Assembly (NCBI RefSeq): GCF_013122565.1
Contig: NZ_CP053258.1
Direction: 5' to 3' (one strand)
Length of the DNA: 64,000 nt
DNA from: Escherichia coli
GTDB taxonomy: Bacteria; Pseudomonadota; Gammaproteobacteria; Enterobacterales; Enterobacteriaceae
Of the stretch, positions 19,538 to 28,530 are shown in pieces. The notes under the pieces were generated by a model that saw only the letters and a program-made list of their open reading frames with translations, did no database searches and was not told where the DNA came from. Within the stretch, counting starts at the first letter, position 1. The number at the start of each line of letters is the position of its first letter. Both the position numbers and the translations under genes were made by a program.

Positions 19538-20674
19538 ATGGGACAGAGTAAAAAATTGAATAAACAACCGAGTTCGCTTTCACCGCTGGTGCAATTGGCG
19601 GGAATTCGCAAATGCTTTGATGGTAAAGAGGTCATTCCCCAGCTGGATCTGACTATCAACAATGGCGAGTTCCTCACGCTGCTTGGCCCTTCTGGCTGCG
19701 GTAAAACAACCGTTCTTCGCCTGATTGCAGGTCTGGAAACTGTTGATTCCGGACGCATCATGCTGGATAACGAGGACATCACCCACGTTCCGGCGGAAAA
19801 CCGCTATGTGAACACTGTTTTCCAAAGCTACGCACTTTTCCCCCACATGACCGTGTTCGAAAATGTGGCCTTTGGGTTGCGCATGCAAAAAACCCCCGCT
19901 GCTGAAATTACGCCCCGCGTGATGGAAGCCCTGCGGATGGTGCAGCTGGAAACCTTCGCTCAACGCAAACCGCATCAGCTCTCTGGTGGTCAACAGCAAC
20001 GCGTCGCCATTGCCCGCGCGGTGGTTAACAAGCCTCGTCTGTTGTTGCTGGATGAGTCGCTCTCAGCGCTGGATTACAAACTGCGTAAGCAAATGCAGAA
20101 CGAGCTGAAAGCGTTACAGCGTAAGCTTGGCATTACATTCGTCTTCGTGACTCACGACCAGGAAGAAGCACTCACCATGTCGGACAGGATTGTGGTGATG
20201 CGCGATGGTCGCATTGAGCAAGACGGCACGCCGCGTGAAATCTATGAAGAGCCGAAAAACCTGTTTGTTGCTGGGTTTATTGGCGAAATCAATATGTTTA
20301 ACGCCACTGTCATCGAACGTCTCGACGAGCAGCGCGTACGCGCCAACGTTGAAGGCCGCGAATGTAATATCTACGTTAACTTCGCCGTTGAACCGGGGCA
20401 AAAACTGCATGTTCTGCTGCGCCCGGAAGACTTACGTGTTGAAGAGATTAACGACGACAACCACGCTGAAGGGCTGATTGGTTACGTTCGCGAGCGTAAC
20501 TACAAAGGCATGACGCTGGAGTCGGTTGTTGAACTGGAAAATGGCAAGATGGTGATGGTCAGCGAATTCTTCAATGAAGACGATCCTGACTTTGACCACT
20601 CTCTCGACCAAAAAATGGCCATTAATTGGGTAGAAAGCTGGGAGGTCGTACTGGCTGATGAAGAACACAAGTAA
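19538..20674 (+). CDS. potA: Spermidine/putrescine ABC transporter ATPase PotA
   Basis: 378-aa ORF with Walker [10 protein letters not shown] and signature LSGGQQQR. Confidence 0.96.
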
Positions 20675-21515
20675 GTTCCAGAATGTAGTGATTGTCACTA
20701 TTGTCGGTTGGCTTGTGTTGTTTGTCTTTCTGCCCAACCTGATGATCATTGGCACCAGCTTTTTGACCCGCGACGACGCCAGTTTCGTCAAAATGGTCTT
20801 TACGCTGGATAACTACACACGTCTGCTCGATCCGCTCTATTTTGAAGTGCTATTGCACTCGCTGAATATGGCGCTGATCGCCACCCTCGCCTGCCTGGTG
20901 CTGGGCTACCCGTTTGCCTGGTTTCTGGCGAAGCTGCCACATAAGGTGCGTCCGCTGCTGCTGTTTCTGCTGATTGTTCCCTTCTGGACCAACTCACTGA
21001 TTCGCATCTACGGGCTGAAAATTTTCCTCAGCACCAAAGGCTACCTCAACGAGTTTTTGCTCTGGCTGGGCGTTATCGACACACCAATTCGTATCATGTT
21101 CACGCCCAGTGCGGTGATTATCGGTCTGGTTTACATTCTGCTACCGTTTATGGTGATGCCGCTGTACTCCAGTATCGAAAAACTGGATAAGCCGTTGCTT
21201 GAGGCGGCGCGCGATCTCGGTGCCAGCAAGTTACAGACTTTTATCCGCATCATTATTCCACTGACGATGCCGGGGATTATTGCCGGATGTCTGCTGGTGA
21301 TGCTGCCAGCGATGGGCCTGTTCTATGTGTCCGACCTGATGGGCGGTGCGAAAAACCTGCTGATCGGTAACGTCATCAAGGTACAGTTCCTCAATATTCG
21401 TGACTGGCCGTTTGGTGCAGCCACCAGCATTACGCTGACTATCGTAATGGGCCTGATGTTGCTGGTTTACTGGCGCGCTTCTCGTCTGCTGAATAAGAAG
21501 GTGGAACTCGAATGA
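20658..21515 (+). CDS. potB: Spermidine/putrescine ABC transporter permease PotB
   Basis: 285-aa ORF overlapping the potA end; multi-TM permease; true start may lie a few codons inside. Confidence 0.9.
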
Positions 21516-22306
21516 TCGGTCGACTGCTTCGCGGCGGTTTTATGACCGCTATCTACGCGTACCTGTATATCCCAATCATTATTTTGATTGTGAACTCCTT
21601 TAACAGCTCGCGCTTTGGCATCAACTGGCAGGGTTTTACCACCAAATGGTATAGCCTGCTGATGAACAACGACAGCCTGTTACAGGCAGCGCAGCATTCA
21701 CTAACAATGGCGGTGTTTTCGGCGACGTTTGCTACGCTTATCGGTTCACTGACGGCAGTTGCACTGTACCGTTATCGCTTTCGTGGTAAGCCGTTCGTTA
21801 GCGGAATGCTGTTTGTGGTAATGATGTCACCAGATATCGTGATGGCAATTTCGCTGCTGGTGCTGTTTATGCTGCTGGGTATTCAGCTTGGCTTCTGGTC
21901 GCTGCTGTTCTCGCATATCACCTTCTGCCTGCCATTTGTTGTGGTGACGGTGTATTCGCGCCTGAAAGGTTTTGACGTGCGGATGCTGGAAGCGGCGAAA
22001 GATCTCGGTGCCAGCGAATTTACCATTCTGCGAAAAATCATTCTGCCACTGGCAATGCCAGCGGTGGCGGCGGGCTGGGTGTTAAGCTTTACCCTGTCGA
22101 TGGACGATGTGGTGGTTTCTTCGTTCGTCACCGGGCCGAGTTATGAAATTCTGCCGTTAAAAATTTACTCGATGGTCAAAGTCGGCGTATCGCCGGAAGT
22201 TAACGCGCTGGCAACCATATTACTGGTGCTGTCGCTGGTGATGGTTATTGCCAGCCAGCTTATTGCTCGAGATAAAACGAAAGGTAACACAGGGGACGTT
22301 AAATGA
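21512..22306 (+). CDS. potC: Spermidine/putrescine ABC transporter permease PotC
   Basis: 264-aa ORF; 4-nt overlap with potB. Confidence 0.95.
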   Translation: MIGRLLRGGFMTAIYAYLYIPIIILIVNSFNSSRFGINWQGFTTKWYSLLMNNDSLLQAAQHSLTMAVFSATFATLIGSLTAVALYRYRFRGKPFVSGMLFVVMMSPDIVMAISLLVLFMLLGIQLGFWSLLFSHITFCLPFVVVTVYSRLKGFDVRMLEAAKDLGASEFTILRKIILPLAMPAVAAGWVLSFTLSMDDVVVSSFVTGPSYEILPLKIYSMVKVGVSPEVNALATILLVLSLVMVIASQLIARDKTKGNTGDVK

Positions 22307-23349
22307 AAAAATGGTCACGCCACCTGCTCGCGGCGGGTGCTCTGGCACTGGGCATGAGCGCCGCTCACGCTGATGACAACAACACGCTGTATTTCTACAA
22401 CTGGACCGAGTACGTGCCGCCAGGACTGCTCGAGCAGTTCACCAAAGAAACTGGTATTAAGGTTATCTATTCGACTTACGAGTCGAACGAAACCATGTAT
22501 GCCAAGCTGAAAACGTACAAAGACGGTGCCTATGACCTGGTGGTTCCTTCAACCTATTACGTCGATAAAATGCGTAAAGAAGGGATGATCCAGAAGATCG
22601 ACAAGTCGAAGTTAACGAACTTCAGCAATCTCGATCCAGACATGCTCAATAAGCCGTTTGACCCGAATAACGATTACTCCATTCCGTATATCTGGGGTGC
22701 GACGGCGATTGGCGTTAACGGTGATGCGGTGGATCCGAAATCTGTCACCAGCTGGGCCGATTTGTGGAAGCCTGAGTACAAAGGCAGCCTGCTGCTGACC
22801 GACGATGCCCGTGAAGTGTTCCAGATGGCACTACGTAAGCTGGGCTACTCCGGTAACACCACCGATCCGAAAGAGATTGAAGCTGCATATAACGAGCTGA
22901 AAAAACTGATGCCAAACGTCGCAGCGTTTAACTCCGATAACCCGGCTAACCCGTACATGGAAGGTGAAGTTAACCTCGGCATGATCTGGAACGGTTCTGC
23001 TTTCGTTGCACGCCAGGCGGGTACGCCTATTGACGTGGTGTGGCCGAAAGAAGGCGGCATTTTCTGGATGGACAGCCTGGCGATCCCGGCAAATGCCAAA
23101 AACAAAGAAGGTGCACTGAAATTGATCAACTTCCTGCTGCGCCCGGATGTGGCAAAACAGGTTGCTGAAACTATCGGTTATCCAACGCCAAACCTTGCGG
23201 CGCGTAAGCTGTTAAGTCCGGAAGTGGCGAACGATAAAACGCTCTACCCGGATGCTGATACCATTAAAAATGGCGAATGGCAGAATGACGTTGGCGCAGC
23301 CAGCAGCATTTATGAAGAGTATTATCAGAAGCTGAAAGCAGGACGTTAA
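22303..23349 (+). CDS. potD: Spermidine/putrescine periplasmic binding protein PotD
   Basis: 348-aa ORF MKKWSRHLLAAGALALGMSAAHADDNNTLYFYNWTEYVPPGLLEQF... with signal peptide. Confidence 0.96.
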   Translation: MKKWSRHLLAAGALALGMSAAHADDNNTLYFYNWTEYVPPGLLEQFTKETGIKVIYSTYESNETMYAKLKTYKDGAYDLVVPSTYYVDKMRKEGMIQKIDKSKLTNFSNLDPDMLNKPFDPNNDYSIPYIWGATAIGVNGDAVDPKSVTSWADLWKPEYKGSLLLTDDAREVFQMALRKLGYSGNTTDPKEIEAAYNELKKLMPNVAAFNSDNPANPYMEGEVNLGMIWNGSAFVARQAGTPIDVVWPKEGGIFWMDSLAIPANAKNKEGALKLINFLLRPDVAKQVAETIGYPTPNLAARKLLSPEVANDKTLYPDADTIKNGEWQNDVGAASSIYEEYYQKLKAGR

Positions 23350-23357
23350 TTCAGCAA

Positions 23358-23390
23358 GCGGGCGGTGGTATTACCGCCCGTTTTTTATTT
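23358..23390 (+). terminator. potABCD rho-independent terminator
   Basis: gcgggcggtggtattaccgcccg hairpin followed by TTTTTTATTT, 9 nt after the potD stop. Confidence 0.75.
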
Positions 23391-23463
23391 AGCAAGAATG
23401 AGGCTAATGAGCCAGGACAGTAGAGTTTTATCCCGCTCTTTCGTCGTTATTGTGGTCCGCTCG

Positions 23464-23493
23464 TAGGCCTGATAAGCGTAGCGCATCAGGCAA
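23464..23493. repeat. REP-like element between potD and cobB
   Basis: gtaggcctgataagcgtagcgcatcaggca. Confidence 0.5.
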
Positions 23494-23504
23494 TGTTTCC
23501 CGCT

Positions 23505-24326
23505 TTATAAGCCCTTCAGCAACTTTTCAACAAATTCTGGCACCACCTGGCTTGCCGGGCCGTAATATTTCTCGGCAAATTCATTACCAACCTGACTCGG
23601 TTCAAGATTGAGTTCCACGGTGTGTGCGCCATGCAGTTTCGCTTCGTGAACAAACCCAGCCGCCGGATAAACATGCCCCGAAGTACCAATGGCAATAAAA
23701 ATATCGGCCATCGACAACGCCATATAAATTTCATCCATACCGAGTGGCATTTCGCCAAACCAGACTACGTGCGGGCGCAAGGGTGCCGGGAACTGGCAGC
23801 AATGGCATTTATCTTCTGGGGTAACGTCTCCGGTCCAGTCGAGAACCTGACCACTTTGTGAACAACGAACTTTCAGCAGTTCTCCATGCATATGAATCAC
23901 ATTGGTATTACCTGCGCGTTCATGCAGGTTGTCTATATTCTGCGTTACCAGCAAAAAGCGATCGCCGAGGGCGTCTTGCAGTTTAGCCAGCGCAAGATGC
24001 GCGGCGTTAGGCTGAATTTCTGGCTGCTGCAGCTGTCGGCGACGGGCGTTATAAAACGCTTGCACCAGTTCAGGATCGCGATCGAAACCTTCCGGCGTTG
24101 CCACATCTTCAACCCGATGTTCTTCCCACAGGCCATCTGCGGCGCGAAAGGTACGAATACCTGATTCCGCAGAAATACCTGCCCCTGTCAGTACGAGTAC
24201 TCTTGGTTTTTCCATTGCTTCCGGCACCACTTTATCTCTGAAAAAAATACGCTGACGCAAACGCTCGCGCAGGCGGCGTTTATTTTTACGAAAACGACTT
24301 AACCGATGACCCCGACGCGACAGCAT
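23505..24326 (-). CDS. cobB: NAD-dependent protein deacylase CobB (sirtuin), long isoform
   Basis: 273-aa [64 protein letters not shown]... Confidence 0.93.
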
Positions 24327-24341
24327 AGCAACCTCTGTTGT

Positions 24342-25253
24342 TTAATCGGTTAGATGTAGGAAGGCCGCACCACGCATTCCTCCCGCATCACCGTGGCGCG
24401 CGCGTTCAATGCGCGGAACACGAGCTACAGGTAAGAGATGACGAGGCAGCCTGTCCGCCAGTTGCGTTGTGATTGCCGGGAAATTCGATAAGCCACCACC
24501 AATGACGACCAGGTCAGGGTCAACAATGGTCAGGATATTTCCCAGACAAACCGCTAATAAATCCAGATAACGCTCAACGTGCGCCCTTGCCTGCTCATCG
24601 CCTTGATCATAAAGCGCAATAATTTCGGGAGCCTGCAACGGTTGATGATAATAGTGTTGATACAGCCACGCAAAACCGCGACCAGACAGATAATTTTCAA
24701 TGCAGCCATGCTGACCACAGCCGCAGCGGCGTAACGGGAAATCCAACCCCATCATGGTTAACGCATCAACCGGCAGACGCATATGGCCAAACTCGCCGGT
24801 AATGTAGCTTTTACCGGTAATCGGTTTGCCGTTGAAAATCAGCCCGCCGCCAACGCCGGTACCGAGAATCAACCCCATCACCAACGGATATTGAGTAAAT
24901 TCATCATCCCAGGCTTCTGAAAGGGCAAAACAGTTGGCATCGTTATCAAGACGAACATCGCGATCAAGACGTGCGCTCAGGTCGGCACGCAGCGGTTTGC
25001 CGCTGGCAGCGGGGACATTAGCGGCATACAGCGTGCCATCTTCTGTTTCCGGCATTCCAGGAATACCGATACCGACAGAACCTTTACAGCCAAAACGTTG
25101 GTCAGCTTCGGCTACCAGTTCACACACTGCATCTAAAAATGCGTCATAGCTGTCACGCGGTGTCGGCACCCGCTTTTCCCACTGCAACTGCCGACCGCTA
25201 TCAAACACGCCAAGCGCAATTTTTGTTCCACCAATATCAAACCCGTAATACAT
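24342..25253 (-). CDS. nagK: N-acetyl-D-glucosamine kinase NagK
   Basis: ORF track 24342-25313; conserved start [29 protein letters not shown] at 25253 (303 aa). Confidence 0.93.
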
Positions 25254-25281
25254 TGCCGCTCCTTGTTTTAATGTACTGCCT

Positions 25282-28530
<3,249 letters not shown>

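Follow-up and report, generated by a model that had tools for sequence, protein, structure and literature searches.

Two uncharacterised inner-membrane protein genes, ymfA and ycfZ, are missing from the 64-kb stretch of Escherichia coli DNA analysed here (hereafter the window), and the 155-bp spacer found in their place between potD and cobB is, with little doubt, the scar left when a single old deletion, about 1.29 kb long, removed them. The breakpoints, the remnant of ymfA left at the site, the junction shared with other genomes and the frequency of the deleted form in the population are all direct observations.

The spacer between potD and cobB

The potABCD operon is intact in the window (19538–23349, plus strand), with potD as its last gene, and cobB is convergent with potD; nagK starts inside an open reading frame at 24342–25313 on the same strand as cobB (minus), according to the list of open reading frames and NCBIfam scans. 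The potD stop codon ends at 23349 and that of cobB starts at 23505, leaving a spacer (23350–23504) of exactly 155 bp. The direct adjacency of the two genes, with a terminator and a REP between their stop codons, had been pointed out in a preliminary description of this DNA and is borne out here. We call loci that carry ymfA and ycfZ the long form and those that lack them the short form; the features of the segment are as follows:

22303–23349, plus strand: potD, intact, 348 aa (NCBIfam NF007048 PotD, E 1e-238, profile positions 1–348 of 348)
23356–23390, plus strand: predicted intrinsic terminator of potD, a hairpin (23356–23383) with a 12-bp G+C-rich stem and a 4-nt loop, then a T-run (pattern scan)
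23407–23454, plus strand: 5′ remnant of ymfA, the ATG at 23407 and 44–48 nt, about 15–16 codons
23451–23455, no strand: deletion junction, placed by best-split analysis, in which the short form is fitted to the two flanks of the long form
23455–23462, no strand: residue of the former ycfZ–cobB spacer, matching GCGTCCCCTTGTA, which is found before the cobB-proximal REP in long-form loci
23463–23491, no strand: complete REP element of 29 nt, GTAGGCCTGATAAGCGTAGCGCATCAGGC, an exact REP sequence
23505–24326, minus strand: cobB, intact, 273 aa (NCBIfam NF001755 Sir2-family deacetylase, E 2e-180)

The hairpin at 23356–23383 and the T-run that follows it, just 3′ of the potD stop codon, make up a predicted intrinsic (Rho-independent) terminator. 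Its RNA folds with a free energy of −20.3 kcal/mol (z −4.3; none of 200 shuffled sequences folds as well), and its sequence is kept in the long and short forms alike. The element at 23463–23491, previously taken for a REP fragment, turns out to be a whole 29-nt REP unit: an extragenic, multi-copy, imperfect palindrome of ~30 nt with the conserved CTTATC(A/C)GGCCTAC end, which forms a hairpin when folded. The window contains 9 copies of its end motif CTTATCAGGCCTAC, where 0.27 would be expected, and the REP part of our query has a median of 7 match sites per E. coli genome; in the Rfam scan of the spacer nothing passed the threshold, the one weak match being to naRNA4, itself derived from REP (21 bits, E 0.16). 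The third component of the spacer, the ymfA remnant, had been overlooked.

The annotated order in the K-12 MG1655 record is lolCDE–nagK–cobB (b1120)–ycfZ (b1121)–ymfA (b1122)–potD (b1123)–potCBA, so that the earlier statement that two genes lie between cobB and potD in K-12 was correct. Both sit downstream of potD in the same orientation as potABCD; ymfA encodes a DUF3592 protein (PF12158) and ycfZ a TPM-domain protein (PF04536). In intact loci the ycfZ–cobB spacer contains a pair of REPs, both on the cobB side of ycfZ, and the REP of the window corresponds to the cobB-proximal member of this pair. The absence of the two genes from the window, also part of the preliminary description, stands: the window lacks both, and tblastn detects no homologue of either elsewhere in the 64 kb (best E 0.08).

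We also considered, and rejected, two views of the ymfA–ycfZ pair as a cassette. Neither gene matches a PADLOC defence-system model, which speaks against a defence cassette, and the matches in plasmid and phage records look like chromosomal DNA, which speaks against a mobile one. Ten “plasmid” records that carry ycfZ measure 0.3–4.9 Mb, are predicted to be non-mobilizable and are most likely mislabelled or over-extended chromosomal DNA. In two “phage” records (ON470619.1 and ON470612.1) ycfZ is identical to that of K-12 and most likely represents host DNA at a prophage edge rather than evidence of mobility.

The ymfA remnant and the breakpoints

When the cobB–potD interval is aligned with that of K-12, homology covers potD, the terminator and the beginning of ymfA up to 23429, and is regained at 23455, just before the cobB-side REP. 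The left homology reaches further against a second class of ymfA alleles, found in ST2350 and VG12A2: it extends to ~23450 in the comparison with ST2350, with the right homology resuming from ~23455 and the flanks collinear with intact loci on both sides. The scar is closer to the ymfA alleles of the ST2350/E. albertii type than to the K-12 type. The ribosome-binding site and the ATG of ymfA (23407) are both kept in the window, and the remnant now reads as a 19-codon pseudo-ORF, MSQDSRVLSRSFVVIVVRS, which ends at a TAG codon (23464–23466). It aligns with the ymfA start of ST2350, VG12A2, E. albertii and K-12; the corresponding N-terminus begins MSQDSKVLSRAFLGIGL in ST2350 and MSQDSRVLSRAFLGIGL in E. 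albertii. Since the N-terminus of Phytobacter YmfA, which begins MQQDAKVFRRIF, is also homologous to the remnant, the retained codons belong to ymfA and not to an older spacer. The lack of the two genes, tentatively attributed to a deletion in the preliminary description, is thus a true loss and no primary absence, given that ~15 codons from the beginning of ymfA are still in place.

Best-split analysis against the two ST2350 flanks places the junction 44–48 nt after the ATG (23451–23455 in the window) and accounts for 48–52 of the 59 positions of the scar. The remaining 7–11 match neither flank, which implies that the true progenitor allele is unsampled and that the breakpoint is good to about 4 nt. 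Relative to an intact locus of the ST2350 type, the missing interval measures about 1,287 bp and comprises ymfA from about codon 16, the whole of ycfZ and the ycfZ-proximal REP of the two-REP pair; on the right, the breakpoint lies 8–12 nt outside the retained REP. The RefSeq annotation of short-form genomes has no pseudogene or other feature between potD and cobB, the remnant being too short for recognition by annotation pipelines.

Distribution and origin of the short form

The short form is no peculiarity of a single strain. It aligns across the junction in 576 of 5,426 complete E. coli genomes (roughly 10%), and ymfA–ycfZ is present in 4,850 of the 5,426; the two numbers add up to 5,426, which suggests that short-form genomes hold no second copy of ymfA–ycfZ, with the proviso that one genome has no match to the potD–cobB query, so that the counts may not be exactly complementary. 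Carriers of the short form include O157:H7, O145:H28, O78, O157:H16 and various animal and human isolates; in O157:H7, potD and cobB are likewise 155 bp apart, with the same junction. Among the matches listed, the short-form alignments run in one piece in every case. Inspected base by base, the junctions of the window, SCU-316, O157:H7 F6667, WL297 and Escherichia sp. E1V33 proved identical. The assignment of the short form to a single event rests on these five junctions and on the single-piece alignments in the listed matches, not on all 576 genomes.

The carriers that share this junction differ by 1–6% in the adjoining 800 bp of potD and of cobB, and their spacers differ from one another at several positions. 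The flanks of WL297 group with those of E1V33 and E. whittamii and not with those of other E. coli strains. The window is 95.4% identical to E1V33 (over 9.3 kb) and 96.6% identical to MOD1-EC7003, and the best of the 5,426 complete E. coli genomes reaches 98.2–99.1% over three segments of ~20 kb; the window appears to come from an Escherichia lineage unrepresented among complete E. coli genomes.

The interval has also been lost in other ways. JSMCR1 carries a separate, strain-specific deletion that begins within potD, which it inactivates, and reaches to the last 168 bp of ycfZ, so that independent deletions do occur here, and in 22 of the 4,850 genomes positive for ymfA–ycfZ the pair is only partly covered.

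To place these states in the family, we scanned GTDB species-representative genomes for PotD, which returned 80 loci, and positioned ymfA, ycfZ, cobB and nagK in them by tblastn. Both potD and cobB were found in 68 of the 80, and they are directly adjacent, 38–221 bp apart, in 41 of these 68, including Citrobacter, Salmonella arizonae, Enterobacter, Lelliottia, Kluyvera and Yokenella. The other 27 hold 0.4–5.4 kb of varied cargo between the two genes; the spacer is a recurrent insertion site, with unrelated cargo in, for example, Klebsiella, Raoultella, Kosakonia and some Enterobacter. Among the scanned loci, the only ones with ymfA–ycfZ at this site are in Escherichia (E. whittamii, E. albertii, “E. 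coli” SCPM-O-B-8794 and MOD1-EC7003) and in two Phytobacter species, whose proteins show 50–59% amino-acid identity. Because adjacency prevails in 41 of the 68 loci and ymfA–ycfZ occurs outside Escherichia only in Phytobacter, adjacency of potD and cobB is probably the usual, ancestral state at the level of the family, and ymfA–ycfZ looks like an insertion in Escherichia. The adjacency seen in the window is nonetheless secondary, since its spacer carries a ymfA start and codons that Phytobacter YmfA identifies as genic. The polarity is thus settled as a probable insertion in the ancestor of Escherichia followed by a secondary deletion.

The prevalence of adjacency across the family could also be read in the opposite sense, with the short form as an ancestral state that never held the genes and K-12-like strains as the ones that gained ymfA–ycfZ by insertion into the spacer. 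We consider this extremely improbable. The window has kept about 15 codons of ymfA along with the start codon and the ribosome-binding site, which contradicts a spacer never interrupted, and no similar sequence is present in the spacers (38–120 bp) of Salmonella, Citrobacter, Yokenella, Lelliottia and Kluyvera. The insertion would also have needed an orphan gene start already in place and a landing site exactly behind its codon 15. The possibility that the region was collapsed by an assembly or sequencing artefact is practically negligible. The multi-copy nature of the REP is a point in its favour, the rest being a general possibility alone, and it is at odds with the finding of the same junction in 576 independent complete genomes and in the draft genome of another Escherichia species, as well as with the intactness of the genes that flank the junction.

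A deletion mediated by REPs, the mechanism put forward in the preliminary description, is a further rival, whether through recombination between REP copies or through cleavage at REPs by a REP-associated transposase or by gyrase. One of the two REPs between ycfZ and cobB was indeed lost, the retained one lies only 8–12 nt from the right breakpoint, and a repeat search of an intact locus finds an imperfect direct repeat of 14 nt (10 of 14 positions matching) that links nucleotides 42–55 of ymfA (TATCGGTCTGATAT) with the start of the retained REP (TGTAGGCCTGATAA). However, the left breakpoint falls in the ymfA coding sequence, at codon 15–16, where there is no REP in K-12, ST2350, VG12A2, E. albertii or E. 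whittamii, and the junction, with an ambiguity of 0–4 nt, lies outside the REP and not within any repeat or shared homology. A microhomology deletion between the two 14-nt sequences, which we examined as a candidate and rejected, predicts a loss of 1,301 bp and the erasure of GTCCGCT(C/T)GTA; the loss observed is 1,287 bp, and the short form still has that sequence. As judged from these sequence comparisons, recombination between REPs appears largely refuted; a REP-mediated deletion as a whole is very unlikely and the idea can be dropped. The REP at the right end alone may still have contributed, as a replication-stalling hairpin or as a cleavage site.

The simplest reading of these data is one old deletion whose product moved between lineages by recombination of the flanks. 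Such a deletion would have taken everything from about codon 16 of ymfA up to and including the ycfZ-proximal REP, and with it the whole of ycfZ, and would have left behind the potD terminator, the ribosome-binding site, start codon and about 15 codons of ymfA, and the cobB-proximal REP. With no more than a few ambiguous bases at the junction, the ends were probably joined without meaningful homology, by illegitimate end-joining or replication slippage rather than by recombination between repeats. The resulting null allele would then have persisted and spread in Escherichia by descent and probably also by homologous recombination of its flanks, to reach its present range, roughly one in ten of the E. 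coli sequenced and at least one cryptic lineage of Escherichia.

Allelic diversity and significance

Where they are intact, ymfA and ycfZ have alleles far more divergent within E. coli than the flanking genes potD and cobB, as the following comparisons indicate:

ymfA, between deep allele classes: about 78% nucleotide identity, dS 0.83–0.93, dN/dS about 0.17–0.18
ycfZ, between deep allele classes: 88–90% nucleotide identity, dS 0.3–0.4, dN/dS 0.13–0.20
potD and cobB, all pairs: 96–98% nucleotide identity (99.9% in one near-identical pair), dS about 0.005–0.18, dN/dS 0.03 or less

Between closely related ycfZ alleles dN/dS rises up to 0.39. Classes of ycfZ and of ymfA are combined as a mosaic: the ymfA genes of K-12 and ST2350 belong to different classes, and their ycfZ genes are 98% identical. 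The K-12-type ymfA is 97–98% identical to that of E. whittamii and SCPM-O-B-8794, whose potD genes are less close (95–96%), and the ST2350-type ymfA is 90% identical to that of E. albertii. Both genes are under purifying selection yet fast-evolving, with allele classes common to several species. The existence of at least two deep ymfA classes, the mosaic of ycfZ classes and a null allele with one and the same junction across lineages including E1V33 suggest a further reading, namely that ymfA–ycfZ is a long-lived balanced polymorphism in Escherichia, under frequency-dependent selection on envelope proteins. We regard this as speculative and on balance unlikely; if it were true, the pair could be, for example, the target of a phage, a colicin or a contact-dependent toxin, and the deletion an escape allele.

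The flanking genes show some variation of their own. K-12-type cobB differs from that of the window by 1 bp shortly ahead of the stop codon that the window uses (window positions 23495–23510), which makes the open reading frame 6 codons longer and carries it into the REP, so that the protein measures 279 aa in K-12 and 273 aa in the window; strains 146 and JSMCR1 also have the K-12 type. In O157:H7 F6667, VG12A2 and strain 146, the genes immediately upstream of potC are not potB and potA but a prophage integrase and excisionase, which indicates a prophage integrated in potB. In E. coli J53, an IS4-family element (annotated as ISVsa5) interrupts cobB.

The deletion resembles several known kinds of genome variation. 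Enterobacterial pseudogene remnants that stem from short illegitimate deletions likewise keep a truncated 5′ fragment between intact core genes, with neither a repeat nor a mobile element at the junction, as in the window; the difference is that RefSeq marks no pseudogene in the short-form genomes. Rearrangements at REP and BIME sequences are similar in that a REP adjoins the junction of the window and one REP of a pair is gone, but their defining traits, a REP at both endpoints and a junction inside the REP, are absent from it. The comparisons of K-12 with EDL933 and Sakai made in 2001 by Perna et al. and by Hayashi et al. reportedly defined K-12-specific “K-islands” that are absent from O157:H7. 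The potD–cobB segment is, like them, a small piece of chromosomal backbone present in K-12 and absent from O157:H7; the polarity given by the ymfA scar and the frequency of the short form were worked out here.

A full-text literature search returned no paper discussing a potD–cobB deletion. For ycfZ and ymfA it yielded nothing beyond passing mentions, in lists of genes and in one pangenome study (PMC10304320, PMC8788219 and PMC3091784), and for b1121 and b1122 only unrelated reference labels.

The short form is an ordinary strain difference, a gene-content polymorphism of a known kind; hundreds of annotated genomes in public collections show it, and no new type of element is involved. Its scar is mapped to within a few bases and could be annotated as a ymfA pseudogene remnant. 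Routine variation in the presence of two uncharacterised inner-membrane protein genes matters little in itself; if the deep allele classes and the widespread null allele do reflect selection, the locus could help to find out what YmfA and YcfZ do.
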